From: an uncultured Granulosicoccaceae bacterium
GTDB lineage: Bacteria; Pseudomonadota; Gammaproteobacteria; Granulosicoccales; Granulosicoccaceae
Length of the DNA: 64,000 bases
Assembly (NCBI GenBank): GCA_937951345.1
Contig: CALFCF010000004.1
Span: forward strand, 85,341 to 149,340
Direction of reading: 5' to 3'
This document shows, in pieces, positions 39,817-59,272 of this stretch (the first letter of the stretch is position 1; every line of letters begins with the position of its first letter). Below the pieces are notes generated by a model. The model did no database searches and was not told the origin of the DNA. It saw only the letters and a program-made list of their open reading frames with translations. The translations under genes and the position numbers were made by a program.

Positions 39817-39850
39817 CAAGACAGATAAGCGACGGGCACCGAACGGATAA

Positions 39851-43344: not shown

Positions 43345-43600
43345 ATTCTGTACAGCCTGGCAGGTCTCCTGGCTCATGATGATGACCGGCAAAAACCAGG
43401 TCAATGCATGCAACCCCTTCCCGGATTCGATCGCTTTTCGCAGTTGTTTGGCGAGAAACTTCCGCAAATCCAGTGGCTCTGTACCAACAGGGTTGGCCAG
43501 AGTTTGTTGCACACTCATCATTCACAGTTGCGGGGGCAGCCGGAGCCTTCACTCCGTTCCCTATTAATCCACACTTGGAACCATGCTGTAGCCATAGGAT
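43345..43600 (-). ncRNA. Cobalamin (B12) riboswitch
   Basis: The minus strand reads GGAACGGAGTGAAGGCTCCGGCTGCCCCCGCAACTGTGA (43560..43522), then AGCCACTGG and GGGAAGG. The B12 box AGCCAGGAGACCTGCC lies at 43374..43359, about 230 nt upstream of btuB. Boundaries are approximate. Confidence 0.85.
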
Positions 43601-43793
43601 AGCGCAAATAAACAGCCGCCGCCTAGTACCTAAAGATCGAATAACGTTACGAGGTGATGCCGGTCGCCATCAGAGACAGCCAGGTGCCGTCTGCGGATAT
43701 ATCCAATGTGCGAGTCAATGGTGTGACAGAACGAAACTGCTAACGCGGGTGGTCGCGCGTCTGATCGCCGAGGTAGGTGGCGCCGGGATTGAC

Positions 43794-44549
43794 TTAACCG
43801 GCTTGCTTGTATTCGACTGCGGCCGACGTGAGCGATTCGAGCATGGCAACATCGTGAACGATATAGTTTCCGGGGCGCCAGGTAATCACTTCCTTTCTTT
43901 CGAGGTTTTTCAGTTCGCGGGTGACGGCTTCCCGGTGCGTGCTGATGCGCGAGGCGATGTCAGCATGCGTCGGTACCCTGTCAAATCTGACAGTGTTCGC
44001 AAAGTCGTTGGTGGAGGCATCCCTGGCCATACGCAACAGCTCCAGTCGCACACGGGCGCCCACGGTTTCCGTGCTGAATTCATAGATGCGCTGCATATGC
44101 ACCCGCAAACGTTCTGTCAGATGACGCATCACAACAGCGGCAACAGAGGGGTAGCGGGCGAGAATTTGCAGGAACACCTCTGCTGTAACAGTTGCCGCAA
44201 CAACGGGTGTTCTGGCAATCGTTTCGGTCTGACGCGGTTTGCCGTCGATGGCAGTGAGATGACCACACATCATGCCCGCGGTGTATTCAAAGTACTGAAC
44301 CTGCTTACCGCTCGGAGACAGGTTATGAGCGCAGGCCCTGCCGCTGATGATAAAAAAAACATCCGTGTTGTCTTCCATAACGGAAGTCAACGACTGTCCG
44401 CTGCGAAAGTCCTTCAAAATCATCAGGTCCGCAATGCTACTGCGCTCCTGGTGCGACAGTGAACTGAAAGCATCAAACGCGGAAAGTGTTGTAGCGGTCG
44501 CTTTATTCAAGAAACGTCTCCTAACATCAATACCGACAACACAATCCAT
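43794..44549 (-). CDS. Crp/Fnr-family transcriptional regulator
   Basis: 251 aa. A cNMP-binding-like beta-roll is followed by the C-terminal HTH PTHADIASRISTHREAVTRELKNLE. Confidence 0.75.
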   Translation of the reverse strand: MDCVVGIDVRRRFLNKATATTLSAFDAFSSLSHQERSSIADLMILKDFRSGQSLTSVMEDNTDVFFIISGRACAHNLSPSGKQVQYFEYTAGMMCGHLTAIDGKPRQTETIARTPVVAATVTAEVFLQILARYPSVAAVVMRHLTERLRVHMQRIYEFSTETVGARVRLELLRMARDASTNDFANTVRFDRVPTHADIASRISTHREAVTRELKNLERKEVITWRPGNYIVHDVAMLESLTSAAVEYKQAG

Positions 44550-44810
44550 GCACCCGGTTGCTGAATCCTTGCGGTTCGGACTTACGATTCTAAGATGAAC
44601 GATTTGTCACGAAGATTGACAATCTATCACTTGACGCGCGAAAAGTTAATATAAACGAAAGTACCAATTTTCGGGTTTTTGAATTCAACGATCCAGGGTT
44701 ATACAAGCTATTGATTTCTTGCAGAAAGTCTTAGTCAGTGGCTACAAATACGCGAACTTGGTACCCGTAACGAAGGCGCAAAGCACAACGCATAATCAGT
44801 CTGTCGTTAA

Positions 44811-44849
44811 AACTAATCTTTAGATTAATAACTAAACGAAAGATTAGTT
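44811..44849. promoter_or_regulatory. 39-bp AT-rich palindromic element, copy 1
   Basis: The sequence is aactaatctttag-attaataa-ctaaacgaaagattagtt. The 11-bp perfect arms AACTAATCTTT/AAAGATTAGTT are separated by 17 nt. It lies 111 nt upstream of the kinase ORF. A near-identical copy is at 54081..54119. Confidence 0.6.
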
Positions 44850-44959
44850 TTTTCAAGCAACTACAAAACCGTTCATCACGCAAAACTGCACACAGCAAAG
44901 ACCACAAAACGCGTTAATATCGATCCCTGAAATACCTCCGATTCAAAAAATACGTCCAG

Positions 44960-46783
44960 GTGAATGAAAGCCTGACAAAGCCTCGAATTTCAATGGAAAC
45001 CCAGCCTTCAGCGCAGGAAATCAGAGACCACCTGTATGCCGAGCTGATCACATTGGTTTACAAGCAGAATCTGCGTGCCTTTTTGTCAATGCTGATTCCG
45101 ATTTGTCTGATCGCTTTTTTGATACAGCGCTCGGCCAGCACATTACCGGCTTTCTCTTGGGCCGCACTAGCCGTGGTAGTACTGGTTTTCAGACTCTGTG
45201 TTCTCCAGCTCATTTCTAAGAAAATCAGCTGGAACAACGAGCGCAAGCTTCAGATTCTGTGCGCGTTAAGCATCCTGCATAGCATCACCCACGCTTCGTC
45301 GTTGTTGTTCTTCGCAGATATGCCGGCTATTGACCGAACCGTGTTATCGATGATCCTTGTTGCGTTGAGTGCTGGTTCGATCGGTACAAGTGCTGGCTAT
45401 CAGCCACTGTTCTGGTGCTACTCAGCACCAGTGATTATCACCGCATCCCTCTGTTGGTTTATCAACTTCAACAGTCCGGTCGAACAGATGTTCGCTGTTA
45501 TCATCGGATTCGCGATGCTTGCATTGATGCTGACACTCGCAACGCTGAGTCATCATACCTTCCGTTTTTTCTCCTCATCAGTAACTGCGATACAACGCGA
45601 GAAATCATTAACACTGCAGTTAACAGGCGCGTTAGATAAAGCCAAACAGGAAAAACAACGCGCCGAGGCGAGCAATCAGTCCAAGGTCAGATTTCTTGCT
45701 TCCGCGAGTCATGATCTGCGCCAACCGGTGCATGTACTGACACTTTTCTCGGCCGCATTGCAGCAGCATAAATTAGCTCCGGAAGCACGACAGATTTGCG
45801 ACGGCATGGACAATGCCATTGACTCGCTGGCCAGTCAGATTCACTCGCTGCTTGATGTGTCAAAACTCGATGCCGGTTTGGTGAAACCGGAATTAACCCG
45901 AATATCATTATCAGCACTATTGCAAACTCTGGTGCGCGAACATGTACAGGATGCGGAGGCTGCCGGTATAACGCTCAATATTGATCTGGCACCGGATATC
46001 CGCGTGAATACCGATCAGGTGATGCTGACACAAATTATCCGTAATCTTCTGACCAATGCCATCAAATATACCAATACGGGCGAAGTCGAAGTAAATCTGT
46101 CTAAAGAAGGTGGCAATGCGGTACTGGTGATCCGTGATACCGGGATCGGCATCGCTGAATCTGACCTCGAAAAGGTCTTTGAAGAATTTTTTCAGGTGAG
46201 CAACACGCAGCGTGACGCCTCACAGGGACTTGGGCTAGGGTTGGCGATTGTACGACGATTGTGCAGTTTGCTTGATGCGCAAATCGAACTGACATCTTCA
46301 CTCGGTGAAGGAACAACCGTTCGTGTCTGCTATCCACTGGCATCCAAAGACCAGACGCTATCCGACAGTAACACTGCCAGAACTCCAATCTCCCGTGCTT
46401 ATGATCTGAGCGTACATATTCTTGATGATGCTGAGCTTGTCAGAGACAGCACGAAGAAACTTCTGGAACCACTGGGCTGCGAGGTTAGTGTTGCCGGTTC
46501 GACCAGTGAATCACTGGCAGTGACAAGAAATACAGACCCGGATGTATTTCTGATTGATCTGAGGCTTGGCGGTGGAGACTCAGGCATCATGGCCATAGAT
46601 GCACTAAGTGACATATTCCCGCAAGCAACGTTTGTAATGGTCTCCGGAGAGTCGGAACTTGAGCAACTGGGCCTGGAACCCCGTGGAATCAAAGCACTGA
46701 AAAAGCCTCTAAAAATAGACAACCTGGTGGAGCTGTTAGATGAAATCCGGGAACAAAAAACAACAAAGAGTTACATCGCTTGA
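44960..46783 (+). CDS. Hybrid sensor histidine kinase (membrane-embedded sensor, HisKA, HATPase_c, C-terminal REC)
   Basis: 607 aa with a GTG start (an alternative is ATG 44993). There are about 5-6 TM helices with only short loops. The H-box is SHDLRQP, the N/G boxes are NAIKYT and DTGIGI, and the REC domain contains VFLIDLRLGG. Confidence 0.85.
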   Translation: MNESLTKPRISMETQPSAQEIRDHLYAELITLVYKQNLRAFLSMLIPICLIAFLIQRSASTLPAFSWAALAVVVLVFRLCVLQLISKKISWNNERKLQILCALSILHSITHASSLLFFADMPAIDRTVLSMILVALSAGSIGTSAGYQPLFWCYSAPVIITASLCWFINFNSPVEQMFAVIIGFAMLALMLTLATLSHHTFRFFSSSVTAIQREKSLTLQLTGALDKAKQEKQRAEASNQSKVRFLASASHDLRQPVHVLTLFSAALQQHKLAPEARQICDGMDNAIDSLASQIHSLLDVSKLDAGLVKPELTRISLSALLQTLVREHVQDAEAAGITLNIDLAPDIRVNTDQVMLTQIIRNLLTNAIKYTNTGEVEVNLSKEGGNAVLVIRDTGIGIAESDLEKVFEEFFQVSNTQRDASQGLGLGLAIVRRLCSLLDAQIELTSSLGEGTTVRVCYPLASKDQTLSDSNTARTPISRAYDLSVHILDDAELVRDSTKKLLEPLGCEVSVAGSTSESLAVTRNTDPDVFLIDLRLGGGDSGIMAIDALSDIFPQATFVMVSGESELEQLGLEPRGIKALKKPLKIDNLVELLDEIREQKTTKSYIA

Positions 46784-49700
46784 GACTGAATGCTGTACGT
46801 GGATATCGAGCCGCTTCGAGAATTACCTGACTGATCTCGAACGTAACCAGATAGCAGGCAGTGCATCTGAGCCAATTGATTTCCTGATTCTTGGCAGTGG
46901 TTATGGTGCTGCTGTTGCGGCACAAAAACTTGCCCGCAACTACCCTGACAACACCCGCAAAGTCGTGCTTTTCGAGCGCGGTGATGAGTATTTGCCCGGA
47001 AGCTTTCCGGAAGCAATAGCAGATCTTCCGGGGCATCTGCGAATCAGCCCGGTCGCAAAAACTCAGGTTGTCGGCAACAAACACGGCCTGTTCGATATGC
47101 GCATCGGCAATCAATTGAATTGTCTGATTGCCAACGGACTGGGCGGCGGATCATTGATAAATGCCGGTGTAATGCGCAGACCTCCGGCACATGCCTATGA
47201 AACTGAATGGCCCGACGCGATTACGCAAACGGTACTGGAACCGTACCTGACGCGGTCAGAAGTTCTGCTTGGCAGTCATACCCGCGACACAACAACGGAT
47301 TCGAATGTACCGGTGACAGTCAATCTGGACACCGATACCGAATCCCACAGTAAAACACGTTTACTGCAGCAATCCGTCAACAGGCTTCGCGCAGGTAATC
47401 CGAATAGTACATTTGCTTTCGAGCCTGCAGCCATCACTGTAGCGGTCAACGACGGTGAAAATCAATCAGGTGTTGAACTGTCAAAATGCATCAACTGCGC
47501 CGACTGCGCTACGGGATGTAACCACAACGCCAAGAATTCGCTCGATGTAAATCTGCTGGTCGAGGCATACCGCGACGGCGCCACACTGATTACCGGTGTG
47601 ACAGCGTTGAAGCTTGTCAAACACACACTCAATAACAATAAAGATAACAGCACAGGGAACAGCACGAGCGACTCAACGCTTTGGCAGGTTGATTGCCGCT
47701 TTACTGATGACAGGCTCTTCGAGCGGGATACCGGCGGTACCGCAGGCATTCGTTCAGTGTACGCACACAATGTGCTGGTGTGTTGTGGCGCACTTGGCAG
47801 CACCGAGCTGTTGTTGAACTCGCAAACGGATACGCTCGCGTTCTCTCACAAGCTCGGACACAACTTCTCAGGCAATGGTGACTTACTCGCCTTCTATCCG
47901 ACAGATCATTTTAAAAGCAGCGGGATCCGGCCCAACAGTTCTGCCCGGCCACATGTGCCACCTGCAGAGCGCCATATAGGACCAACGATAGGCGGTGTTG
48001 TCAGCACAACAGGCACTAAGGACAGTGGCTTGCAAACACTGTTGATCGAAGAAATGGCCATTCCGGGCACCATCCGCAGCTTCTTCGAACAACCGATTGA
48101 ACTCAACCGGTATATACGCGGTGTACTGACAAACTTTCAGAAAAGGCTGACCGACGACGAGAAGATTCACCCCCTGGCAGTCGACAACACCGGCATCTAT
48201 GCAGCGATAGGCGATGATCAATCCAAAGGTATTGTTTCATTGCCTCAGGAAGGCAATCTCAAGAACCCGCAAGCGCAGCACGACGGCATCGCTCAAGTTA
48301 GCTGGTCTGACTTCAACACAATCGAGAAGCTTTTCAATGAGCAGACCAGACGCATAAACGAACTATTTGCTGAAAAGCCGAATAGACGCGGTGTACTACC
48401 TAATCCTATGTGGCGATTTTTCAAGCGGTTGCAGCGCCTTCTCACTGATGAAAACCGTTTGAACACTGCCTTGAGCGTTCACCCACTGGGTGGATGCCGT
48501 ATGGCAGACTCAGTCAGTCAGGGTGTTACCGACGACAAAGGCAGAGTTTTCAATCCGCAGACCAATCAGGGTGTGCACGACGGGCTGTACGTGCTCGATG
48601 GTGCCATCGTTCCGCGTGCACTAAGTGCAAACCCTGCACTGACAATTACCGCACTGGCACTTCGCGCGACCGAACAACTGGTAGACGAACAACTGTTTAA
48701 TCTCCCCGACCTGCACACATCCGACACTGCAATTGCACCGCAATTGCTTTCAAGTAACCCGTCAATCGATAATAGTATCGCGACACACGGACGACGCAAA
48801 CTGCCGTCGCAACGCCCACGCATAAACAAACACGAAAACCAGCTGGCAACCAATGCGCGAAGCCAGAGTCGCTTCACCCTGCTTGAGCGCCTTGGCGGTG
48901 AGGTTACCCTCAAGATAAAAGGGGTGAAACACACGGTCTTTCTGGAACTCACCATCAGAAGTGCGGCGAAAAACCTGAATGAGTTCAGTGATGCTGACTA
49001 TCGCTCGAATAGTGAACATGAACAGTTTCAGGTATCTGCTAACTGGAGCCACAAAGGGTTTAGTTCAACTTTACGCATTTACCCGTCACGGGCCGCCTAT
49101 GACGATGCAGAGCGTCGCGCAATGGTTCAGCTTCCAATGCTGTCGGACAATGATTTCGGTTCGTCCTGGCAAGGCGACAGGTCTCTTTTTGGCGCACTGA
49201 TATCCAACCAGAGTGCTCGTGAAAAGATCCTCACGGAAGCTGCATTGACAGTAATTTCTTTAGAGGGAAGTGTGCGGGTTTTACACACCAAGCCTTACGC
49301 ATTTTTTCGTCGCGCGAAAACCGGTGTAAAAAATATTATCAAACTCGGGTTCTTAGTTTGGCAAACCCGTAGTTTCCGCCTTGCGCTTGCTACTACACAA
49401 TGGCGATATTTAACCTACCGGCTGCTTCCGGCCCAAGCCATTTACAGAACCGATGCTGATAGCAAGACCCAGGCACTGGTTGATCGCCTGCAACACAGAA
49501 TCCGCAAATCCATTGCTCGCGGTGAGACACTACTGATAGGCGAGAAATGTGTGTACACCGATAGGCCAGAAACCATCATTTCTCAACTTAGTGAAGTCAA
49601 CATCAGGAAATTTCCGTTTTTTTCCAGGCTCGAATCCGAGCGACTGGTGCTCGACCCCAAACTCTTTGCAGCAACAGCGCATCCACTGATCGCGATCGAA

Positions 49701-51614
49701 AAACAAACCAACCTGATTGACAGTTTCACTGACCTTGCAAGCTTTTCGCTGTTTTGTTTTAAGCGGCTACTGCCCATTCACGCCCCGGCCATCGCAGCCG
49801 CAGCAGCTGATATCTTTGCCACTTCCGCTGCGACACAAACAGACGAACTCACCGCTCCAGCAGATGTTAAGCGTACACCGGGTGAAATTCCGGGAGCCAA
49901 TCGCACACTGTATTTACTGGAAGTTCCGAAAACGATTTCAAGTCCAGACAGCAACAGCAAGACAAGCGGGCGACTCAATATTCACCCATCGGATGATACG
50001 TCACCGGTTTTTATCGGCCTGACCCGGTATCAAGGCAAACACCATGAACAGGTGAACACAACACATCAACGAGCACCCATACTGTTGATCCACGGCTATA
50101 TCGCCGGTGGCAATACCTTTACTCACCATTCACTCGAGTACCCGCTGGCACAAACGCTAATCGAAGACGGTTACGATGTGTGGGTGCTGGACATGCGCGA
50201 CAGTTGCCGCTTCTACGCACAGGCGCAGAAGATCTGGACGTTCGAACAAGTTGGGCTGATCGATATCAGAGTAGCAATTGATTTTGTTTGCAAAACCAGT
50301 AGGCAGCCGGCAATTGAGGTATTGGCCCACTGTATCGGTTCTGCGAAATTTTCATTAGCGATGCTGTCAGACAAAGCATCAATTCAAGTATTCGAGTATG
50401 AAGCCAAGCAAGTGCGCGACTGGTCGGTACACGACTGGGAACCCCGGCCACGCGCACCGGCTGGACATGCAGATTCCACGCAGTACAGCGAATCCACATG
50501 GCAAAGATACACGATTGATGCAACGCATCCTGCCGAACGTATCGCCAAAGCAGTTCTGTCACAAGTGACACCCATACTCAGCGTTAGTGACGGTAACCTG
50601 CTGCGTGCTTATCTACTCGACAACTGGCTGAAATTTACCCCGTTCTCGGCTTATCAACTGCAGTACAGGCGCGATAACAGCGGATTCGCACTCATGGCTG
50701 AGAAACTGTTGGATGCCGGTCTGCAAATGATCCCCTACGCCTATGACAAATCAGACAAACGTCTGGATGCAACAGAATTCAAAGAGGCGATGCGCATACG
50801 GCGCCGAATGGATTTGTTGTACAACAAAGTGTTTGAACTTAAACATACCAGTGACAAAACACTTCATCACCTGCATGAGTTATTCGGTCCGGTTAATCTG
50901 CACACACTCCTGCAAGGCGTTCATTTTGCCAGAGAGAGTCAGGTTACCGGTCATCTCGGTGAAGGCGTCTCTTATCGCAACAATCGTATCCTGGAGCGAA
51001 TGGCCGAACAATGGACCTTCCCGACACTGTGCTTCATTGGTGCTGATAACAATGTCTTCCACGCGGATGGCTTTCAGGCATTTAAACAGGCAGTAGATGT
51101 CAATGAACTCACCAACTTCCACGTCATGACACCGATAAATGACTACGGACATCAGGATGCTTTCACTGGCACAAAAGCGCACACTGAAATTCATCCGTTA
51201 ATACTGGCATGGCTTGATAATCCCATCAGTGTGCCGGGCGACACCCAACATCGCAAAAATTTAAACAAAAAAGCACAGCGGAAATTCATCTCTGTCACGC
51301 AACAGGTCAGCCATAACATACAGCCAATAGCAGACGGTCTGGCTCTGACCTTACGTAAGAGCGATTTGCCTCGTGGCGTGTCCACTGTACGCCTGGCAAA
51401 CCGGGCACATCCACAACCAGCGGTTTTTGACTACCGTTACCTGCAGCAATCGACCTATACCGATAACTTCGCCGACATCTCACATGACAAGGCTTCTGTG
51501 TACTTTCTTATCAAACGTAACAAAGCCAACGATTTGTTTACAGATAGCGGGCGAATCGCTGCAATAGATATACAGGTTGATGCCTTACATTTTTCATCCC
51601 CAGTGACCGAATAG
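46740..51614 (+). CDS. 1624-aa multidomain protein: ChoD-like GMC (FAD) oxidoreductase, then ~450 aa of unknown region, then an alpha/beta-hydrolase domain
   Basis: The FAD motif is DFLILGSGYGAAVAA (aa 47-61), followed by GLGGGSLINAG. KCINCADCATGCNHNAKNSLDVN is similar to mycobacterial ChoD. The GMC C-terminal motif is HPLGGCRM...LYVLDGAIVP (aa ~581-640). The hydrolase part has PILLIHGYIAGGNTF...GYDVWVLDMRDS, the elbow AHCIGS (Cys-1198) and YGHQDAF (His-1471). It is a single uninterrupted ORF. Confidence 0.8.
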   Translation: MKSGNKKQQRVTSLETECCTWISSRFENYLTDLERNQIAGSASEPIDFLILGSGYGAAVAAQKLARNYPDNTRKVVLFERGDEYLPGSFPEAIADLPGHLRISPVAKTQVVGNKHGLFDMRIGNQLNCLIANGLGGGSLINAGVMRRPPAHAYETEWPDAITQTVLEPYLTRSEVLLGSHTRDTTTDSNVPVTVNLDTDTESHSKTRLLQQSVNRLRAGNPNSTFAFEPAAITVAVNDGENQSGVELSKCINCADCATGCNHNAKNSLDVNLLVEAYRDGATLITGVTALKLVKHTLNNNKDNSTGNSTSDSTLWQVDCRFTDDRLFERDTGGTAGIRSVYAHNVLVCCGALGSTELLLNSQTDTLAFSHKLGHNFSGNGDLLAFYPTDHFKSSGIRPNSSARPHVPPAERHIGPTIGGVVSTTGTKDSGLQTLLIEEMAIPGTIRSFFEQPIELNRYIRGVLTNFQKRLTDDEKIHPLAVDNTGIYAAIGDDQSKGIVSLPQEGNLKNPQAQHDGIAQVSWSDFNTIEKLFNEQTRRINELFAEKPNRRGVLPNPMWRFFKRLQRLLTDENRLNTALSVHPLGGCRMADSVSQGVTDDKGRVFNPQTNQGVHDGLYVLDGAIVPRALSANPALTITALALRATEQLVDEQLFNLPDLHTSDTAIAPQLLSSNPSIDNSIATHGRRKLPSQRPRINKHENQLATNARSQSRFTLLERLGGEVTLKIKGVKHTVFLELTIRSAAKNLNEFSDADYRSNSEHEQFQVSANWSHKGFSSTLRIYPSRAAYDDAERRAMVQLPMLSDNDFGSSWQGDRSLFGALISNQSAREKILTEAALTVISLEGSVRVLHTKPYAFFRRAKTGVKNIIKLGFLVWQTRSFRLALATTQWRYLTYRLLPAQAIYRTDADSKTQALVDRLQHRIRKSIARGETLLIGEKCVYTDRPETIISQLSEVNIRKFPFFSRLESERLVLDPKLFAATAHPLIAIEKQTNLIDSFTDLASFSLFCFKRLLPIHAPAIAAAAADIFATSAATQTDELTAPADVKRTPGEIPGANRTLYLLEVPKTISSPDSNSKTSGRLNIHPSDDTSPVFIGLTRYQGKHHEQVNTTHQRAPILLIHGYIAGGNTFTHHSLEYPLAQTLIEDGYDVWVLDMRDSCRFYAQAQKIWTFEQVGLIDIRVAIDFVCKTSRQPAIEVLAHCIGSAKFSLAMLSDKASIQVFEYEAKQVRDWSVHDWEPRPRAPAGHADSTQYSESTWQRYTIDATHPAERIAKAVLSQVTPILSVSDGNLLRAYLLDNWLKFTPFSAYQLQYRRDNSGFALMAEKLLDAGLQMIPYAYDKSDKRLDATEFKEAMRIRRRMDLLYNKVFELKHTSDKTLHHLHELFGPVNLHTLLQGVHFARESQVTGHLGEGVSYRNNRILERMAEQWTFPTLCFIGADNNVFHADGFQAFKQAVDVNELTNFHVMTPINDYGHQDAFTGTKAHTEIHPLILAWLDNPISVPGDTQHRKNLNKKAQRKFISVTQQVSHNIQPIADGLALTLRKSDLPRGVSTVRLANRAHPQPAVFDYRYLQQSTYTDNFADISHDKASVYFLIKRNKANDLFTDSGRIAAIDIQVDALHFSSPVTE

Positions 51615-51622
51615 GACGAGCA

Positions 51623-51870
51623 CTAGCCTGCTCTATTCATGAAGGCGAAAACAGTGACAATGAAAACTAAGCAATTTCCAGTTAGAAAAGCAGTTTTAGC
51701 GTCGCTGCGGGTATTCGCACACTGTTTTCTATTCACCACCAGAGCCAGTCTGCCGTCGCAGCTCACTCGATTGAGCTCAACCCGTAGATTTCTACGAATT
51801 TCGCTCAATCGAGCGACCAGCTTAGGTAGCCAGACTCTGGTGGCGAACCCTTCATGAATAGAGCAGGCTA
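51623..51870. repeat. Inverted-repeat element (22-23-nt terminal arms around a ~200-nt structured core), MITE/REP-like
   Basis: The left arm ctagcctgctctattcatgaagg (51623..51645) and the right arm ccttcatgaatagagcaggcta (51849..51870) are reverse complements. The core holds nested inverted repeats (caccagag..cagtct/agactctggtg and tcgattgagc/gctcaatcga). It starts 9 nt after the giant ORF stop. Confidence 0.7.
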
Positions 51871-51944
51871 AAAGAACACAATTAAGCACAACATCAAAAA
51901 CGTACCCGACAACAAACACAAACAGATCGGAAAATCCCAGCGGC

Positions 51945-53141
51945 ATGGAAACTACAAAAGAGCAGACCCTCGCAAACGAACAAACGGTCGCCATCGGCAG
52001 CTGCCAGTATCCGGGTAGTTTTTTTGATAACAACTACGCCTACCAAGCCTGGCGACAGCTGACTGATGACAACGGCGATTTGCGCGCTCAAACGATGATT
52101 CTGCTGGGCGATCAGATCTACGCAGATGCGACTGCCGGCCTGTTCGAAACGGAAAATCCGATAGCACAGTATCTTTATCCGTATGAACAGCTCCACACGC
52201 GGCTTCGTAACGTTAAGACACCACCGGGCAAATATTCACTGAACGACGATCACGAGATGATTGAAAACTGGGAACCGGTGTCACCACATAGCGCAAGTGC
52301 CGAGAAAGTGGAAATCGCTAGAAACTACGGCCTCGATTGCTACCGCGATCACGGGTATTGCAAGGGATACCCACAAAACTACAATCAAGCCCCCTACTTT
52401 CGGGCGCTTGATTATCTGCCGTTCCCAATATTTCTCTGTGACACACGGACAGAACGAGAACATCGGTCAACCGGTAATTTTCTCGATGCAAAAATGTTCA
52501 GTGAACAACAGATGCAGGCACTTAAAGAATGGCTGATAACACACAGACAAGACGAGCTTAAGATAATCACGTCACCCGCTGCCCTACTGCCACGTTCAGC
52601 TGCCGCCAACAGACCTCAGCCTTCTGATGATCAACAGGTTCACGGACTGCCATTTACATCGAGTGTGCTGCGCAGTGATGCATGGGACGGCTATCCGGCA
52701 ACTTTCAGCGAATTACTAACGTTTATCGCAAAGGAGTCCTTGACCGGCATCGTATTCGTATCCGGTGATTTCCATTTCTCTTCCGTCAGCAGTTTGAACA
52801 TGATGCATGGCGGGAATCAAACCACTGTGCACTTGATTCACTGCTCCGGGTTATATTCACCCTTTCCCTTTGCCAACGCCACACCCCCGGATTTGCTATT
52901 AAACGATGAGTTCTGGTTACCGGCATCCATGCAGGGAAGTCTGTTAGACGTCTGTCAGCACTCAACGCAAATCAGTGACTGTATTCACTGCCAGGTAGCA
53001 ACTGAAGTGGTTGAGGCCGGAGATGGATTTTGTTTTATCAAAGTATCTGCAGACGGGTTTCTGGAGATTGAATTCTCACGTCATCACAAGCCGGAGAATC
53101 CGATATACCGTAAGCCGTTACAAGAAAAACAGTTTGTGTGA
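51945..53141 (+). CDS. PhoD-like metallophosphoesterase with no signal or Tat peptide
   Basis: 398 aa. VAIGSCQYPG, MILLGDQIYADATAG, NDDHEMIENW and FVSGDFHFSSV match the PhoD-like/calcineurin-like metal-site pattern. Confidence 0.65.
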   Translation: METTKEQTLANEQTVAIGSCQYPGSFFDNNYAYQAWRQLTDDNGDLRAQTMILLGDQIYADATAGLFETENPIAQYLYPYEQLHTRLRNVKTPPGKYSLNDDHEMIENWEPVSPHSASAEKVEIARNYGLDCYRDHGYCKGYPQNYNQAPYFRALDYLPFPIFLCDTRTEREHRSTGNFLDAKMFSEQQMQALKEWLITHRQDELKIITSPAALLPRSAAANRPQPSDDQQVHGLPFTSSVLRSDAWDGYPATFSELLTFIAKESLTGIVFVSGDFHFSSVSSLNMMHGGNQTTVHLIHCSGLYSPFPFANATPPDLLLNDEFWLPASMQGSLLDVCQHSTQISDCIHCQVATEVVEAGDGFCFIKVSADGFLEIEFSRHHKPENPIYRKPLQEKQFV

Positions 53142-53145
53142 TGGG

Positions 53146-53190
53146 CTAGCCTGCTCTATTCATGAAGGGTTCGTGAATAGAGCAGGCTAG
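53146..53190. repeat. Compact hairpin copy of the 51623/51870 repeat family, a possible bidirectional terminator
   Basis: CTAGCCTGCTCTATTCA-tgaagggttcg-TGAATAGAGCAGGCTAG forms a 17-bp perfect stem. It starts 5 nt after the PhoD-like stop and lies between convergent genes. Confidence 0.65.
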
Positions 53191-53299
53191 GTTTAACGCG
53201 TTTCAGTTAGGGCGCGTTACGGTGTTTTTGCCACAAAGTTTCAAAGGAAATTGGCAGAAACTAAGTACAAAGCTATTGAAGTACAACGTGAGTAAAACA

Positions 53300-53971
53300 C
53301 TACTGCACGTTTGTATCATCCGTACCTTCCAAACCAGCTAACATCAATAACGCTTCTGTTCTGCTTTTTACCCCCAGCGTCTTGTAAGCTGTAGACAAAT
53401 GCGCCTTCACTGTGCCTTCAGAAATATTCAACTCGTTGGCTATTACCCGATTGGTCGCACCCCGAACAGCCAATAAAGTAGTTTCACGCTGCCGCAACGA
53501 TAAACTTGCCAGTGCTGTCTCTATGCTGTCGCTGATGGAGACACAGGTAAACCCGCGTAACTCCTCTGTTGCAGGATCCTGTTCAACTAGCGCTTCAGGG
53601 GGAAGGTATATGCCACCGGCCAAAACAAGTCTTAACGCCTGGACTAATAACTCTTTGGATGAATGTTTCGGAATGAAACCGGATGCACCGCCATCGAGCA
53701 CACTGCGGATAAGATCCGGGCGATCATCCCCGGATAACACGACAACTGCGGCGGTTGGAAAACTATCCTGGATTCTTGCAATTGCAGCCGAACCACCAAT
53801 GCAAGGCAGATGGTAGTCGAGCAATACGAGATCCACGTTCCCGGCACCCAGATCATCGAGCCTGTCGACACTACCCGTATCGAAAAACTCGACATCGCTT
53901 GCGAGCTCCTTCAGCAGTAAACGTAGCCCTGATCTGAAGAGCTCGTGATCGTCCACAATGAGTACTTTCAC
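53300..53971 (-). CDS. NarL/FixJ (LuxR-type HTH) response regulator
   Basis: 223 aa. The REC domain is MKVLIVDDHELFRSGL...LVLLDYHLP. The C-terminal HTH is RETTLLAVRGATNRVIANELNISEGTVKAHLSTAYKTLGV. Confidence 0.85.
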   Translation of the reverse strand: MKVLIVDDHELFRSGLRLLLKELASDVEFFDTGSVDRLDDLGAGNVDLVLLDYHLPCIGGSAAIARIQDSFPTAAVVVLSGDDRPDLIRSVLDGGASGFIPKHSSKELLVQALRLVLAGGIYLPPEALVEQDPATEELRGFTCVSISDSIETALASLSLRQRETTLLAVRGATNRVIANELNISEGTVKAHLSTAYKTLGVKSRTEALLMLAGLEGTDDTNVQ

Positions 53972-54080
53972 GCGCTTCCAATGATTGATTAAACACTCCC
54001 TGGTATTTCCTCCTAACTACTTGACACAACTACACGTGCAGCTGACCGTCCAACCGGATCCTCGCAACGTTCACAAAAAA

Positions 54081-54119
54081 AACTAATCTTTAGTTTATTT
54101 TCTAAACCAAAGATTAGTT
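54081..54119. promoter_or_regulatory. 39-bp AT-rich palindromic element, copy 2
   Basis: The sequence is aactaatctttag-tttatttt-ctaaaccaaagattagtt, with the same arms and 17-nt spacing as copy 1. It lies 110 nt upstream of the LuxR-type regulator start and is preceded by an A8 run. Confidence 0.6.
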
Positions 54120-54398: not shown

Positions 54399-55259
54399 TT
54401 AACCCATTTTCGATTTAAGTCCATAGTGCGATCGCCGGTCGCCAAGAAAACCATACTGACGACGCGCGTCATCAATTTCCTGTAGCGCCAGCGTGAAACT
54501 TAAAAGCTGCTCATCACAATCGTGGAAGACATAAGGCGGGCGTTGTCCGTCAACCCACGGATAACTGATGATAGATGCACCGTAGTTCGAACCCGCCCGG
54601 TTAAGCCCCAAAAAGAACAACTGATTTTCAACGGAGCGTGTGATCACAAAGGGGTGCCAGCTGTAGAACGACTGATCGCGGAAGTACGCACTGCACTGGA
54701 GTATCAAATCAACCTGATGTGTTGTTGCCAGCTCACGAACAATTTCCGGGGTTCTGATATCGACACAGATAATCGGAGCAACTGTAAAACCGCCAACACT
54801 AAAAACCAACAGCCCGTCGCCTGGGACAAAAAAGTTCTTCTCGGCAGATGCACCAAATTGAGCAAGATGTATTTTGTCGTAATAACCGATCAGATTTCCG
54901 TCGGGTCCGACAACCGCCGAAGTGATGGTGTAACCTTGATCTGTAACTCGCGGGAATCCGAATACGATATGCGTTGAATATTCCTTCGCAACTTCACACC
55001 ACGTATTAAACGAAGGACCATCTAAAGGTTCAGCCAGCGTATCAAGAAGATCAAAAGCCTCACCGGAATATTCAATACTCGAGAGTTCAGGTAGCACAAC
55101 CAGATCAGCCGATTGCTTAGAGAGACTTTCGCGAACGCGCCGTGCACTAGACAGTAAGTGCTGATCACGCTCAACCTCCGTTCGCGTTTCGGGTATCGCA
55201 AGCTGCGCTGCCAGCAAGGTGAGTGTATGTGTTGTCGTCATGTGTCCTCCGGGACCCAC
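54399..55259 (-). CDS. Carbon-nitrogen hydrolase (nitrilase superfamily)
   Basis: The E-K-C triad context is VLPELSS, YDKIHL and APIICVDIRTPE. The likely start is ATG 55241 (MTTTHTLTLLAAQLAI). Confidence 0.75.
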   Translation of the reverse strand: MGPGGHMTTTHTLTLLAAQLAIPETRTEVERDQHLLSSARRVRESLSKQSADLVVLPELSSIEYSGEAFDLLDTLAEPLDGPSFNTWCEVAKEYSTHIVFGFPRVTDQGYTITSAVVGPDGNLIGYYDKIHLAQFGASAEKNFFVPGDGLLVFSVGGFTVAPIICVDIRTPEIVRELATTHQVDLILQCSAYFRDQSFYSWHPFVITRSVENQLFFLGLNRAGSNYGASIISYPWVDGQRPPYVFHDCDEQLLSFTLALQEIDDARRQYGFLGDRRSHYGLKSKMG

Positions 55260-55287
55260 AGGAGGGGCACGATTTACGAAGCACTTT

Positions 55288-55321
55288 CGTTGTATTGCGA
55301 CTTACGTTGTATTGCGACTTA
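55288..55321. repeat. Perfect 17-bp tandem duplication (cgttgtattgcgactta x2)
   Basis: Read directly from the sequence. It lies in the divergent promoter region between the nitrilase-family gene and hyuA. Confidence 0.9.
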
Positions 55322-55481
55322 CGATCAAGGGTTACGCCGATAGTTGCTGTGACGCAGTTGCACAGGGTAACTGGTTTCTCGCAGTTTAATCGAAAACACG
55401 CGATAATCCAGCCGATCAAAGACAAACTCCATCGATTCGCACCGTTAATCGCGAAAAAAGCAACGGAAACAGAATACTCAG

Positions 55482-57569
55482 ATGTCCGAAAATCAGATCC
55501 GACTTGGCGTGGATATCGGTGGCACATTCACCGACGTCGTGCTTGAAACACCTGACAACAGCTATTCGACAAAAGTGCTGACAACCTATGCGGCACCTGA
55601 AGATGCCATCCTGACAGGAATCGACAAGGTTTGTAGTCTTGGCGGCGTCAACCCGGCTTCTGTCGAGCAGATGATTCACGGAACCACACTTGCCACCAAT
55701 GCGTTGATTGAACGACGCGGCGCAAAAACCGCTCTTGTGACGACCAGCGGTTTTCGCGATGTAATGGAAATGCGTACGGAAAGTCGCTTTGAGCAGTACG
55801 ATCTGAATTTGACTTTGCCAACACCGTTACTACCTCGCAACCGTCGCTACGTGCTACCCGAACGCATGGACGCACGCGGCGAGGTGTTGATCCCTCTTGA
55901 GCGTCCGGCAATTGAACAACTTGCCGATGAGCTGGCCGCGGCAAACTACGAAAGTATCGCCATCGGTTTGCTGCATTCCTATGTCAACGATGCCCACGAA
56001 AAAATGATCAGAGATGTATTCACTGAGCGCATGCCAGAAGTCATGCTTTCATTGTCGAGTGAAGTATCACCGCAGATGCGCGAATACGAACGATTCAATA
56101 CGACTGTTGCTAACGCCTATATTAAACCTTTGATGAAAAGTTACCTGAGTCGGCTCGAAGGCCGGTTGCGGGAATCCGGTATTACCTGCCCGGTATTTTT
56201 GATGCATTCCGGCGGTGGCATTATCAGTCTCGAAAACGCTGCTGAATTTCCGGTTCGACTGGTTGAATCAGGCCCTGCAGGTGGTGCGGTCTTCGCAGCA
56301 GATGTTGCTGCGCGTCACGGCCTTGAAAACGTGCTGTCGTTTGATATGGGTGGTACAACTGCAAAAATCTGCCTGATTAAAAATCAAACACCAAAAACCG
56401 CGCGCGTTTTTGAGGTGGCACGAACCTATCGTTTCAAAAAAGGGTCGGGTATGCCCATTTCGATCCCGGTTATCGATATGGTGGAAATCGGCGCCGGCGG
56501 CGGATCACTTGCCCACGTTGATGCGATGAATCAGATTCGTGTGGGTCCGGAAAGCGCAGGCTCTGAACCGGGTCCGGCGTGCTACGGCCGCGGTGGTAAA
56601 CATGCGGCAGTCACTGATGCCGACCTGACACTCGGCAAACTCGATCCGGATAATTTCGCCGGTGGCACGATTCCATTAAACAAAGCAGACTCTGAAGCCG
56701 CACTGCAATGCGATATCGGTTCACAACTGGGTATGGACGCCAACGAATCCGCCTGGGGTGTGGCAGAAGTTGTTGATGAAAACATGGCCAATGCCGCGCG
56801 AGTACATGCGGTCGAAAACGGTGAAGACTTAAGCCAGTACACAATGATTGCATTCGGCGGTGCCGCGCCCTTACACGCTGCTCGTCTTTGTCAGAAACTC
56901 GGTATCGAGCGCTGCCTAGTGCCACAGGGAGCCGGTGTCGGCTCAGCCATCGGTTTTCTGCGTGCACCGTTCAGCTTCGAATCAAACCGTACTGTTTTCA
57001 TGAAGCTCACAGCATTCGAACCGGAAAGGATCAAACAGTTGTTCACGGAAATGGAGGAAGAAGCAACAACATTTGTGCGCGCCTGCGATGCGACTGCGGA
57101 TATACTGAAAGACCACAAAATCTACATGCGCTATGCCGGTCAAGGCTGGGAAATTCCTGTACCACTGACAACCGACGAGGCACGTACGCCGAACGTTGAC
57201 ACTTACACTGAACGTTTTGAAACAACCTACCGGACACTGTTCGGGCGTTCGGTAGAAGGCATGGAAATCGAAGTCACTGTCTGGTCGGTCAACGCCTATA
57301 CAACCCCTCTGGCATCCGAAAAGTTGCTGCAACAACCTGCCCCTGAAAATGTGCAAACGCAAACTACCCGAGCGTTGTTTGATTCTGCCACCGGCAAGTC
57401 GATAGACGCGGCCGTTCACTCGCGGACTGCACTTGCTGCCGGCAATCAAGTCGCAGGGCCTGCGATCATCACTGAAGACGAGACAACCGTTATTGTCCCG
57501 TCAGATCGTTTTGCACGGGTACTCACAGACAACACGGTCGAGGTAGCAGTTAAAGGAGAATCCAGATGA
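55482..57569 (+). CDS. hyuA: Hydantoinase/oxoprolinase A subunit (HyuA family)
   Basis: 695 aa. The N-terminus is IRLGVDIGGTFTDVVL, with later FDMGGTTAKICLI, both typical of Hydantoinase_A. Confidence 0.85.
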   Translation: MSENQIRLGVDIGGTFTDVVLETPDNSYSTKVLTTYAAPEDAILTGIDKVCSLGGVNPASVEQMIHGTTLATNALIERRGAKTALVTTSGFRDVMEMRTESRFEQYDLNLTLPTPLLPRNRRYVLPERMDARGEVLIPLERPAIEQLADELAAANYESIAIGLLHSYVNDAHEKMIRDVFTERMPEVMLSLSSEVSPQMREYERFNTTVANAYIKPLMKSYLSRLEGRLRESGITCPVFLMHSGGGIISLENAAEFPVRLVESGPAGGAVFAADVAARHGLENVLSFDMGGTTAKICLIKNQTPKTARVFEVARTYRFKKGSGMPISIPVIDMVEIGAGGGSLAHVDAMNQIRVGPESAGSEPGPACYGRGGKHAAVTDADLTLGKLDPDNFAGGTIPLNKADSEAALQCDIGSQLGMDANESAWGVAEVVDENMANAARVHAVENGEDLSQYTMIAFGGAAPLHAARLCQKLGIERCLVPQGAGVGSAIGFLRAPFSFESNRTVFMKLTAFEPERIKQLFTEMEEEATTFVRACDATADILKDHKIYMRYAGQGWEIPVPLTTDEARTPNVDTYTERFETTYRTLFGRSVEGMEIEVTVWSVNAYTTPLASEKLLQQPAPENVQTQTTRALFDSATGKSIDAAVHSRTALAAGNQVAGPAIITEDETTVIVPSDRFARVLTDNTVEVAVKGESR

Positions 57570-59272
57570 ACCAGATTAGTCAGGTCGCCTATCAAGTGAT
57601 GTGGAATCGACTGATATCAGTCGTCGAAGAGCAGGCTCAGGCGTTGGTTCGTACTGCGTTTTCAACGTCAGTGCGTGAGGCGGGGGATTTATCTGCCGGC
57701 GTGTACAACGATCAGGGTGAGATGCTGGCACAAGCAGTAACCGGCACACCCGGGCATGTCAATGCAATGGCCGATGCGGTTGGTCATTTTATTCGGCGTA
57801 TTGGCCGCGACAATATGTATGAAGGTGATGTGTACATCACTAATGACCCTTGGGAAGGTACTGGTCACCTACACGATATCACTGTCGTTACACCGTCGTT
57901 TTACCAAAGCCAGCTCATTGGTTTCTTTGCGTGCACTGCACACATTGTTGATATCGGCGGTCGGGGTTTTGGTGCAGACGCCAACTCTGTCTATGAAGAA
58001 GGTTTATATATCCCGATCATGAAATTTGCCGAACGCGGCAGCGTTGATCAGACACTGATCAAACTGATACGCGGCAACGTGCGTGAACCGGATCAATTAG
58101 TGGGTGATGTTTATGCGCTGGAAACCTGCAACGAAGTGGGACATCGTCGCCTGATTGATATGTTATCTGAATTCAACCTCAGCAACCTCGACGGCATTTC
58201 GCGTTTTATTATGGAAAACTCGCGCGCTGCAACACTGGCACGCATCAATGCACTGACGCCGGGTACTGCCGACGGCCATATGCGTATTGACGGTTACACA
58301 AATCCGATTGATCTGCACGTAAAATTAAGCATCGAGCAGGACCGTATGCACTGCGACTGGGAAGGAACGTCAGGGCTCGACAAAAAAGGGATCAACGTAC
58401 CGCTGGTGTACACCAAGGCTTACACCTGTTACGCACTGAAGTGTGCCATTGCTCCAGATATTCCAAACAATGCTGCATCGCTGGCACCGTTTGAAATCAC
58501 AGCACCGGAAAACAGCATTGTCAATGCAGTACACCCGGCACCGGTTGCGTTACGTCATGTCATCGGTCACATGGTGCCCGACACCGTATACGACGCGCTC
58601 GACAAGCTGCTTCCGAATACAGTACCGGCAGAAGGCGCCGGTAGTCTGTGTAACTTCCAGGTGTCGTTGCGTCCGCGCTCGGACGAAGATGCACCGGAGG
58701 ATGCAGTCAGATCAGAAGTCCTGACCTTCAACTCCGGTGGCTCGGGTGCACGCCCGACGCTCGACGGTATGAATGCAACCGCCTTTCCGTCAGGCGTCAT
58801 GACCATGCCGGTTGAAGCCACGGAACAAGTGGGACCGGTTATTATCTGGCGCAAGGAATTACGCCAGGATAGCGGTGGTGGCGGACAGTACCGTGGCGGA
58901 CTCGGACAGCATATGGAAGTGGGTGCCCGCGAGGGACACGAATTCGATATTCAAGCGATGTTTGATCGTGTTGACCATCCTGCACGCGGTCGACGTGGCG
59001 GACACAACGGTGCGCCAACAACTATCGCACAAGATGATGGAACACCGATGCAAGGCAAGGGTAAACAGTTTGTTCCTCACGGACGCAAAGTGATTATGGC
59101 TTTTCCGGGAGGTGCCGGTTACGGTGAGCCTGCGTCAAGAAGTAAACAGCAAGTGTGCAGTGATCTTGCCAACGGATACATCTCAAAACAAATGGCAATT
59201 GACACGTATGGCTTATCGTCGGCTGAGGCCAGCGACGTATTGCAACGTTCTAAAAATGGTGACTCTATCTAG
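57566..59272 (+). CDS. hyuB: Hydantoinase/oxoprolinase B subunit (HyuB family)
   Basis: 568 aa. Hydantoinase_B-type segments are VMWNRLISVVEEQAQALVRTAFSTSVREAGDLSAGV and NDPWEGTGHLHD. It overlaps hyuA by 4 nt. Confidence 0.85.
   Translation: MNQISQVAYQVMWNRLISVVEEQAQALVRTAFSTSVREAGDLSAGVYNDQGEMLAQAVTGTPGHVNAMADAVGHFIRRIGRDNMYEGDVYITNDPWEGTGHLHDITVVTPSFYQSQLIGFFACTAHIVDIGGRGFGADANSVYEEGLYIPIMKFAERGSVDQTLIKLIRGNVREPDQLVGDVYALETCNEVGHRRLIDMLSEFNLSNLDGISRFIMENSRAATLARINALTPGTADGHMRIDGYTNPIDLHVKLSIEQDRMHCDWEGTSGLDKKGINVPLVYTKAYTCYALKCAIAPDIPNNAASLAPFEITAPENSIVNAVHPAPVALRHVIGHMVPDTVYDALDKLLPNTVPAEGAGSLCNFQVSLRPRSDEDAPEDAVRSEVLTFNSGGSGARPTLDGMNATAFPSGVMTMPVEATEQVGPVIIWRKELRQDSGGGGQYRGGLGQHMEVGAREGHEFDIQAMFDRVDHPARGRRGGHNGAPTTIAQDDGTPMQGKGKQFVPHGRKVIMAFPGGAGYGEPASRSKQQVCSDLANGYISKQMAIDTYGLSSAEASDVLQRSKNGDSI

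Follow-up and report, generated by a model that had tools for sequence, protein, structure and literature searches.

A putative two-component-regulated module for a predicted oxidase, cysteine hydrolase and PhoD-like phosphoesterase in an uncultured Granulosicoccaceae bacterium

Introduction

Two-component systems of the ErcS'/ErdR, CrbS/CrbR and MctS/MctR type control small catabolic regulons; the sensors of CrbS and MctS are solute-symporter-like, and those of NahK and ErcS' are soluble. PhoD enzymes, for their part, belong to phosphate-starvation regulons, and PhoD of Bacillus subtilis is a phosphodiesterase. Here, we analyze a four-gene module located in a 64,000-nt stretch of DNA from an uncultured Granulosicoccaceae bacterium (contig CALFCF010000004.1, positions 85,341 to 149,340; hereafter the window, to whose positions all coordinates refer), in which a hybrid sensor histidine kinase and a NarL/FixJ-type response regulator flank the gene of a giant enzyme and very probably would control its expression.

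Our results make it highly likely that the four genes constitute one regulated unit, and indicate that the giant protein and the PhoD-like protein encoded next to it are, judged by their sequences, the two halves of a single enzyme. On balance, we lean towards regarding the module as a split version of a widespread proteobacterial set composed of a hybrid kinase, a mega-enzyme and a NarL-type regulator. The superfamily of each part is known, and the autoregulating two-component logic is ordinary; what is new, as far as our searches show, is an enzyme family joining three chemistries, with a Cys-type acid-lipase-like hydrolase, a cytoplasmic PhoD and an apparently new middle domain. Likewise, the pairing with a six-helix hybrid kinase and the putative operator are without prior description in the sources covered. 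An earlier note on this DNA, made from the letters and the open reading frames (ORFs), had put the system forward as a candidate for an undescribed one, and as far as checked this stands: no module protein reached a specific NCBIfam equivalog, the literature searched contained nothing on the fusion or the gene combination, and the one public (RefSeq) record that was checked annotates a fused member only as 'alpha/beta fold hydrolase'. Furthermore, the PADLOC defence models gave no match to the giant or the PhoD-like protein, and only generic domain matches for the kinase and the regulator.

Results

Gene organization of the module

Gene calls were based on the ORF list and on Pfam domain matches. 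The kinase gene (44960..46783, plus strand, 607 residues, GTG start) is followed on the same strand by the gene of the giant enzyme (46740..51614, 1624 residues), whose 5' end overlaps the kinase 3' end by 44 nt, and by that of a PhoD-like metallophosphoesterase (51945..53141, 398 residues); the response regulator gene (53300..53971, minus strand, 223 residues, GTG start), of NarL/FixJ type with a LuxR helix-turn-helix, is convergent on this unit. The overlapping ATG is the likely start of the giant ORF, because family members share conserved N-terminal residues (W21). Base composition within the window displays no discontinuity across the module region.

Most of what the earlier note had read from this region was borne out, namely a hybrid kinase with only five to six membrane helices and no sizeable periplasmic domain, a 44-nt overlap with a 1624-residue ORF fusing a ChoD-like oxidoreductase to an alpha/beta hydrolase, a PhoD-like protein devoid of an export signal, a convergent LuxR-type regulator, and a 39-bp palindrome about 110 nt upstream of both the kinase and the regulator. 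The Pfam check of the four proteins that it had proposed matched all the expected families, with Abhydrolase_1 just short of its cut-off.

The kinase and the regulator

The kinase carries the Pfam domains HisKA (residues 242-306), HATPase_c (352-461) and a Response_reg receiver (485-593), with SHDLRQP as its H-box, which is the composition of a hybrid sensor histidine kinase. A hydropathy scan located six transmembrane segments between residues 37 and 196, connected by loops of at most 12 residues, and detected no transmembrane segment in the giant, PhoD-like or regulator proteins. The sensor (residues 1-237) had no Pfam match even at E = 0.1, and a word-index homologue search with the sensor only returned no match at E <= 0.001, of which bias filters acting on a transmembrane-rich query are the probable cause. 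The closest NCBIfam model was that of the NahK/ErcS C-terminal region (NF041832), which matched the C-terminal core only, with 260.3 bits against a cut-off of 400.

The regulator combines Response_reg (68 bits) and GerE (50 bits) domains, as is typical of NarL/FixJ (LuxR-type) proteins, and its acidic pocket is intact (D7, D8, D52, S80 and K102). Its closest NCBIfam model was ErdR (NF041830; 114.1 bits against a cut-off of 390), followed by MctR and NarL.

Domains and catalytic centres of the giant enzyme

Four parts can be distinguished in the giant protein: a ChoD-like GMC flavoprotein (approximately residues 47-650), a middle domain (700-1050), an alpha/beta hydrolase (1100-1500) and a beta-rich tail (1514-1620). 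The enzyme is predicted to be cytoplasmic, and its three catalytic centres, counting that of the PhoD-like half, are apparently intact; residues described below as invariant are so in an alignment of 22 homologues of the giant enzyme.

Both GMC domains scored above their Pfam cut-offs (GMC_oxred_N, 53.1 bits against 23; GMC_oxred_C, 52.6 bits against 24.6). The motif for flavin adenine dinucleotide (FAD), GSGYGAA, lies at residues 52-58, and G52, G54 and G56 of its GSGYG core are invariant, as are H581 in VHPLGGC and the pair N631-P632; on motif recognition rather than structural superposition, H581 and N631 are the putative equivalents of the catalytic His and Asn of ChoA. A profile search of the PDB with this part retrieved the cholesterol oxidases of Streptomyces and Brevibacterium (E ~1e-26), and the ChoA/B cholesterol oxidase equivalog (NCBIfam NF058674) was not reached, with 113.4 bits against its 850-bit cut-off.

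The GMC domain also contains an invariant four-Cys motif, C250-x2-C253-x-D-C256-x3-C260 (CINCADCATGC; 47487..47519, plus strand), whose ferredoxin-like spacing makes it a possible iron-sulfur or metal site. Its location inside the GMC domain would mean that the domain has a metal site or a site of electron transfer of its own, and the flavoprotein may be either an oxidase or a dehydrogenase handing electrons to the four Cys. A 781-residue homologue from Bacteroidota displays the same motif, and in that homologue only, Fer4 matches were obtained from Pfam, all of them sub-threshold. Ferredoxin-like spacing of four Cys is unusual for the GMC superfamily.

The middle domain (residues 700-1050; 48837..49889, plus strand) is a long-stranded beta-sheet with helices. 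Modeled alone with AlphaFold2 (AF2), it reached a predicted local distance difference test score (pLDDT) of 83.4 and a predicted template modeling score (pTM) of 0.83, and a Foldseek search of the PDB with this model found no significant neighbour (best E 0.2), which makes it a candidate for a new fold. With phmmer, only 4 proteins were retrieved from 1.84 billion representatives, the domain being too divergent for a single-sequence search. The weak LolA/LolB, START and ApoB-like rows of the structural search (E 0.2-2, template modeling (TM) score <=0.3) are no indication that the middle domain binds lipids.

The hydrolase part matched Abhydrolase_1 of Pfam at approximately residues 1113-1202 with 22.8 bits, just under the cut-off of 25.8. 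The best PDB neighbours of an AlphaFold model of residues 640-1624 (pLDDT 74.7) were acid lipases (Foldseek E 8e-9 to 8e-8, target TM 0.58-0.65), followed by bacterial lipases and esterases and then by PhaC and PhaZ at E ~1e-5. A profile search of the PDB likewise retrieved gastric and lysosomal acid lipases (1HLG, 1K8Q, 6V7N), and both the profile and the model point to an acid-lipase-type alpha/beta hydrolase. The segment LAHCIGS aligns with VGHSQGT of human and dog gastric lipase, which places Cys1198 (codon 50331..50333, plus strand) in the nucleophile elbow at the position of the nucleophilic Ser. The elbow A1196-H-C1198-x-G1200, the oxyanion motif HGY (1118-1120) and GHQD (1470-1473) are all invariant; thus the G-x-S-x-G signature of acid lipases is absent, an invariant Cys standing in place of the Ser. 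A Cys box (G-x-C-x-G) is also a feature of polyhydroxyalkanoate (PHA) synthases and intracellular polyhydroxybutyrate (PHB) depolymerases, but neither PhaC_N nor PHB_depo_C was detected, and the target TM for PhaC was 0.33-0.38. The giant ORF ends in ~110 beta-rich, poorly modeled residues, which match the linker in front of PhoD in the fused proteins described below.

Fused and split forms of the enzyme

The PhoD-like protein matches the Pfam family PhoD (PF09423) with 71.5 bits against a cut-off of 27, keeps the motifs SCQ, GDQIYAD, DDHE, WDGYP and SGDFH, and its DAWDGYPA...SGDFH stretch aligns to B. subtilis PhoD (2YEQ). The PhoD equivalog (NCBIfam NF058638) was not reached, with 23.2 bits against a 1000-bit cut-off. 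The conserved GSCQYPG begins already at residue 18, too close to the N-terminus for a Tat or Sec signal to precede it, and neither an RR motif nor a hydrophobic segment was found in the protein.

With the giant protein as query, 873 homologues were retrieved at E <= 1e-3, GMC-only relatives included. Most of the best 120 of these 873 are 1,850-2,050 residues long and combine PF09423 with the GMC and abhydrolase domains, B. subtilis PhoD being the PDB profile match of their C-terminal part. The PhoD-like protein aligns with residues 1544-1888 of one such fused protein from Solimonas (P0031; 33% identity, E = 3e-52), and the giant ORF is collinear with the preceding part of the same protein over at least its first ~1,330 residues. 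For the comparison of loci, we used 80 from GTDB species genomes together with a metagenomic contig designated L001, the closest relative of the module (66% identity); 63 loci carry all three enzyme parts, as one ORF of ~1,900 residues in 44 and split just before the PhoD domain in 19, some of which may be assembly frameshifts. The earlier note had treated the PhoD-like gene as an independent partner, a view that gives way here, the gene encoding a C-terminal domain that has become separated from the giant enzyme. L001 is split likewise, with a gap of only 82 nt, and the 330-nt gap of the window is therefore secondary.

When candidate stretches of GTDB species genomes were scanned, 596 of the first 600 encoded a relative of the enzyme, from soil, freshwater and marine Proteobacteria. 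The fusion itself implies that alcohol oxidation, acyl-Cys hydrolysis or transfer, and phosphoester hydrolysis act together.

Conservation of the gene neighbourhood

An orthologous hybrid kinase adjoins the enzyme gene in ~51 of the 63 three-part loci, as determined by tblastn with the kinase, its sensor and the regulator. These orthologues display 30-38% identity over the full length, sensor included, and in many loci the sensor aligns by itself. The kinase gene is mostly located directly upstream on the same strand, usually at less than 100 nt or overlapping, and in several loci it lies on the opposite strand or downstream. The regulator gene adjoins the enzyme in 41 of the 63, either convergent and just 3' of it, or immediately preceding the kinase gene; in a few loci, no regulator is linked. 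Burkholderiales, Nevskiales, Cellvibrionales, Salinisphaerales, Arenicella and Thiotrichaceae, among others, are represented. An all-vs-all clustering of the flanking ORFs recovered the module families as the only recurrent ones, with no Hpt protein among them; two further clusters (5 and 6) were discarded as antisense artefacts of high-GC DNA. Thus, the synteny on which the earlier note had made its proposal depend holds in relatives, and its reading of the four genes and the palindromes as one module is supported by the fusions, by the kinase and regulator synteny across orders, and by the conserved boxes described in the next section.

The association of the three activities is not limited to Proteobacteria. 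In Bacteroidota (Cyclobacterium, Aquiflexum, Lunatimonas), the 781-residue GMC homologue, which has the same four-Cys motif and a C-terminal extension, belongs to a gene cluster (L055, L067, L070, L076, L077 and L078; e.g., L067 3909-12301) with the order Cys-hydrolase, acetoacetate-decarboxylase-like protein, patatin-like phospholipase, calcineurin-like phosphoesterase and GMC protein. The hydrolase (338 residues) is homologous to the hydrolase domain of the giant protein and has its Cys in VHCQGS, and the phosphoesterase has a membrane tail. This cluster looks like an unfused, uncharacterized counterpart of the mega-enzyme, and the occurrence of the genes as separate, clustered units suggests that oxidase, Cys-hydrolase and phosphoesterase were associated before they became fused.

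A different neighbour was observed in Ensifer, Rhizobium and Ruegeria (L010, L015, L016, L018, L029 and L083), where a divergent gene of ~1,345 residues takes the place of the two-component system next to the fused enzyme; its product joins an adenylate/guanylate-cyclase domain to an AAA_16 STAND-type ATPase, a combination pointing to another regulatory input for the enzyme in these loci.

Putative tandem operator boxes upstream of the kinase and the regulator

The left 39-mer (44811..44849) is located 110 nt before the kinase GTG, in the intergenic region between the kinase and a divergent Crp-like gene, and the right one (54081..54119) lies 109 nt upstream of the regulator GTG. The 39-bp palindrome has exactly 2 copies in the window and zero in shuffles. 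Each 39-mer consists of two tandem 16-bp boxes (heptamer, 2 bp, inverted heptamer) that are 19 bp apart from start to start: CTAATCTTTAGATTAA at 44813-44828 (CTAATCT-TT-AGATTAA) and CTAAACGAAAGATTAG at 44832-44847 (CTAAACG-AA-AGATTAG) on the left, and CTAATCTTTAGTTTAT at 54083-54098 (CTAATCT-TT-AGTTTAT) and CTAAACCAAAGATTAG at 54102-54117 (CTAAACC-AA-AGATTAG) on the right. Of the palindrome claimed by the earlier note, the bracketing of the four genes by two copies is retained, but what had been taken for a single site resolves into two tandem 7-2-7 boxes.

The long palindrome is not conserved in L001, where the 7-2-7 core is kept in another arrangement and with other flanks: the regulator is preceded by two perfect CTAATCT-NN-AGATTAG boxes at a distance of 20 bp, and the kinase by the box pair with its order swapped. 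The motif CTAAWC-N4-GWTTAG was derived from the window and L001 only, and L001 was left out of the test that followed. With at most 1 mismatch, this strict motif has 10 matches in 1.6 Mb of locus DNA, 4 of which fall in the zones reaching 400 nt upstream from a kinase or regulator start, which make up 2.6% of the DNA (expected 0.25, p = 8e-5); the four belong to Comamonadaceae (L009), Halieaceae (L030), Thiotrichaceae (L034) and Arenicella (L058). A looser motif placed 11 of its 30 matches in those zones (0.77 expected), and the stricter test is the more trustworthy, because the looser consensus had been broadened with the data in view. L031 and L058 likewise have tandem boxes, at a spacing of 19-22 bp. 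A box sequence that is kept while the hairpin is not fits binding by GerE-type regulator dimers, and not a terminator, a repetitive extragenic palindromic (REP) element or transposon ends. It is fairly probable, on these patterns, that the regulator would autoregulate through the boxes.

Further boxes were observed in some relatives. In the Arenicella-like loci L058 (6283-6520) and L031 (3918-4150), an extra box, GATTAGTTYATACAACTAAACTATAGTT, lies ~1 kb upstream of the regulator gene. This box is followed ~190 nt farther on by a conserved hairpin and T-run (GTGCAGCA...TGCTGCTAAAC-TTTCTTTT), possibly representing a small RNA or leader under the control of the regulator. L030 has, next to its kinase gene, a phytochelatin-synthase-like gene that is bordered by two perfect boxes.

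Flanking genes and inserted repeats

The divergent left-hand neighbour of the module is a Crp/Fnr-like gene (43794..44549, minus strand). An ORF at 43404-44462 on the plus strand is probably spurious, as it has no Pfam match and overlaps both the Crp-like gene and a cobalamin riboswitch (RF00174; 43342..43600, minus strand, 83.9 bits), the only element found by an Rfam scan of the whole window and one located outside the module. The riboswitch precedes the gene of a BtuB-like TonB-dependent receptor, which is followed by further ORFs among the minus-strand genes at 37913-43125; the syntenic left genes of L001 encode a periplasmic binding protein, a FecCD permease and an ABC ATPase, as in a B12 uptake locus. 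To the right, the region 54399-59272 contains a nitrilase/amidohydrolase-family gene (minus strand) followed by genes of hydantoinase/caprolactamase-like A and B subunits (plus strand), with 463 and 172 bits to CapA and CapB, respectively, below the cut-off. The window and L001 share these left (Crp/Fnr-like gene and B12 cluster with its riboswitch) and right (nitrilase-family gene, then hydantoinase-type genes) neighbours, which are conserved nowhere else among the loci.

A 248-bp hairpin element, resembling miniature inverted-repeat transposable elements (MITEs) or REP sequences, is inserted between the giant ORF and the PhoD-like gene (51623..51870), within the 330-nt gap. It has perfect 22-bp terminal inverted repeats and folds as one long hairpin (-117 kcal/mol, z = -10.9). 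It is absent from L001 and is not part of the ancestral module; as the cause of the split between the giant and PhoD-like genes it was rejected, L001 being split without it. Between the convergent PhoD-like and regulator genes (53146..53219), a 45-bp 'empty' copy of the terminal repeats (53146-53190) precedes a hairpin and T-run that resemble a terminator (53194-53219). The two elements share the termini CTAGCCTGCTCTATTCATGAAGG, the 45-bp copy consisting of two termini only. A 1,330-bp Logan contig (L082) that contains the PhoD-like gene alone ends at the repeats, which suggests that these are multi-copy in the genome.

Discussion

A mechanism can be proposed from these results, each step of which is conditional. 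The six-helix, membrane-embedded sensor would detect a hydrophobic or membrane-borne cue, upon which the kinase would phosphorylate the regulator, directly or via an unlinked Hpt protein; regulator dimers would then bind the tandem boxes and activate the kinase-enzyme(-PhoD) operon as well as their own gene, in positive autoregulation. The induced cytoplasmic enzyme might act on a single substrate, or on intermediates in succession, by three reactions: cleavage of a phosphoester at the PhoD-type metal site, removal or transfer of an acyl group by way of an acyl-cysteine intermediate in the acid-lipase-like hydrolase, and FAD-dependent alcohol oxidation by the ChoD-like GMC domain, with electrons perhaps passing via the four-Cys site. 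The molecule processed would accordingly carry a phosphoester, an acyl (thio)ester and an oxidizable hydroxyl. A membrane-derived phospho-, acyl- or hydroxy-lipid is our tentative guess for the substrate. The earlier note had itself pointed to a hydroxylated, esterified and phosphorylated lipid that would be sensed and either remodelled or catabolized; by analogy, a lipid fits the nearest structural relatives (cholesterol oxidase and acid lipase) and the patatin cluster of Bacteroidota, the phospholipase company being the best, if indirect, argument for it. That the ~1,900-residue mega-enzyme performs a multi-step transformation of an unrecognized bacterial membrane lipid or lipid-linked metabolite, and that this same molecule is sensed by the kinase in the membrane, is a more speculative proposal, which we put forward as possible and rather doubtful.

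Several observations weigh against this picture. The kinase is a hybrid that lacks an Hpt domain, and no Hpt is encoded nearby. No transporter or further catabolic gene is linked in the flanks, so that the substrate cannot be deduced from them, and the names 'cholesterol oxidase' and 'lipase' rest on weak similarity, as the distance of the GMC part from the NCBIfam cholesterol oxidase cut-off illustrates (113 against 850 bits). Rhizobial, Ruegeria and some other loci carry the enzyme without this two-component system. As for the boxes, ~85-100 nt separate them from the only downstream -10 element that looked plausible by eye, and a promoter scan detected no sigma-70 promoter-like site between them and either start codon, in a scan that gave fewer sites overall than shuffles did; T-runs follow both palindromes, the right one of which scores as a terminator-like hairpin, and the motif is not recognizable in many high-GC Burkholderiales loci.

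Among the other explanations, the likeliest is a more specific form of the lipid reading, in which the enzyme would be an intracellular phospholipid degrader, with a phospholipase C/D-like PhoD, a lipase and an oxidase, freeing phosphate and recycling diacylglycerol or head groups under nutrient stress by a logic like that of rhizobial PlcP. The cytoplasmic location, the lipase-like hydrolase, the patatin and metallophosphoesterase partners in Bacteroidota and membership in the PhoD family, with the phosphate-starvation background of that family, are counted for it, but the module has its own two-component system instead of PhoBR, inspection of 44550-44960 by eye revealed no tandem CTGTCA repeats resembling a Pho box, the locus has no link to phosphate transport, and the ChoD-like oxidase would have no obvious role. 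We consider this explanation unlikely.

The invariant Cys raises the question of whether the enzyme is instead biosynthetic or transacylating, forming a Cys thioester as PHA synthases and PHB depolymerases do and transferring or polymerizing (hydroxy)acyl units, with the oxidase and the phosphoesterase tailoring the product or its precursor. The A-H-C-x-G box with Cys in the place of Ser, the presence of PhaC and PhaZ among the structural neighbours (E ~1e-5) and the acetoacetate-decarboxylase-like gene of the Bacteroidota cluster are in line with this possibility; yet acid lipases stand well ahead of PhaC as structural neighbours (TM 0.58-0.65 against 0.33-0.38), Pfam detected no PhaC_N or PHB_depo domain, and no gene for acyl-CoA or acyl carrier protein metabolism is linked, which leaves it quite unlikely.

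Catabolism of sterols or steryl esters, sensed by the kinase and degraded by a cholesteryl-ester hydrolase and a cholesterol oxidase, is suggested by the closest solved relatives of the two domains (cholesterol oxidase at E ~1e-26 and lysosomal acid lipase/cholesteryl ester hydrolase) and by the label 'cholesterol oxidase' that some sources give to homologues. We find it improbable, given the shortfall of bits at the cholesterol oxidase equivalog, the lack of linked genes for steroid-ring or side-chain degradation and for sterol uptake, the cytoplasmic location of both enzymes, and the obligatorily fused PhoD domain, to which it assigns no role.

Just as improbable is that the palindromes are structural elements (terminators, insulators or REP-like sequences) or the ends of a mobile cassette rather than operators: each 39-mer can form a 17-bp hairpin ahead of its T-run, the terminator-like right copy is 280 nt downstream of the nitrilase-family gene, the four genes are bracketed exactly and the genome has other palindromic repeats, but the left copy has no co-directional gene upstream, only 3 of the 17 stem pairs are G-C, unlike in terminators or REP elements, and the core persists in L001 as two tandem short palindromes without the long hairpin and is found again in front of the kinase or regulator gene in Comamonadaceae, Halieaceae, Thiotrichaceae and Arenicella. 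A cassette delimited by inverted repeats was rejected in particular, as the flanks are syntenic in L001, with no sign of recent mobility, and composition does not shift.

If the proposal of a sensed and transformed membrane lipid is true, the module would represent a new and widespread pathway of lipid homeostasis or lipid-signal turnover in Proteobacteria, without a characterized counterpart. The dedicated, putatively membrane-sensing two-component system that travels with the enzyme makes it a well-defined target for finding its function, and the regulator, its predicted site and the single output gene constitute a ready-made reporter for the inducing signal and hence for the substrate.

Comparison with known systems

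As in ErcS'/ErdR, CrbS/CrbR and MctS/MctR, the module pairs a hybrid kinase that has a receiver and lacks Hpt with a NarL-family regulator. Its scores are nevertheless all below the cut-offs of those families; moreover, in contrast to systems of the ErcS'/ErdR type, its sensor is a compact six-helix bundle without a Pfam match and its target is a single mega-enzyme. The candidate operators resemble the 7-2-7 sites of NarL and NarP in their inverted heptamers 2 bp apart, which fit dimers of GerE-type helix-turn-helix proteins, but the module boxes, predicted from sequence alone, form tandem pairs about two helical turns apart. The half-site consensus of NarL, TACYYMT, also differs from that of the module.

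With the class I cholesterol oxidases ChoA and ChoB and the ChoD-like clade, the giant enzyme shares the GMC domains, the GxGxxG motif and the His...Asn-Pro pair; unlike ChoA and ChoB, it contains the four-Cys motif, is predicted to be cytoplasmic instead of secreted, and has its GMC part as the N-terminal module of a 1,600-2,000-residue protein. ChoD of Mycobacterium tuberculosis (Rv3409c) has a Cys-rich stretch as well, CxxC...C...C-x-HGAKN. The hydrolase resembles gastric and lysosomal acid lipases, the latter including cholesteryl ester hydrolase, in the HG oxyanion motif, the capped fold and the aligned elbow (VGHSQG against LAHCIG), and departs from them in that it is Cys- and not Ser-based, bacterial, cytoplasmic by prediction and fused to other domains, with 12-14% identity.

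Finally, the PhoD-like protein has in common with B. subtilis PhoD (2YEQ) a Pfam PhoD match above threshold and the motifs SCQ, GDQIYAD, DDHE, WDGYP and GDxH, whereas it has no Tat signal, PhoD_N was not detected in it, and it is predicted to be cytoplasmic. In most genomes, the PhoD domain of the module is, unlike PhoD itself, the C-terminus of the oxidase-hydrolase protein. The gene phoD is widely used as a marker of the extracellular mineralization of organic phosphorus, and the large clade of cytoplasmic, fused PhoD domains to which that of the module belongs probably acts otherwise.

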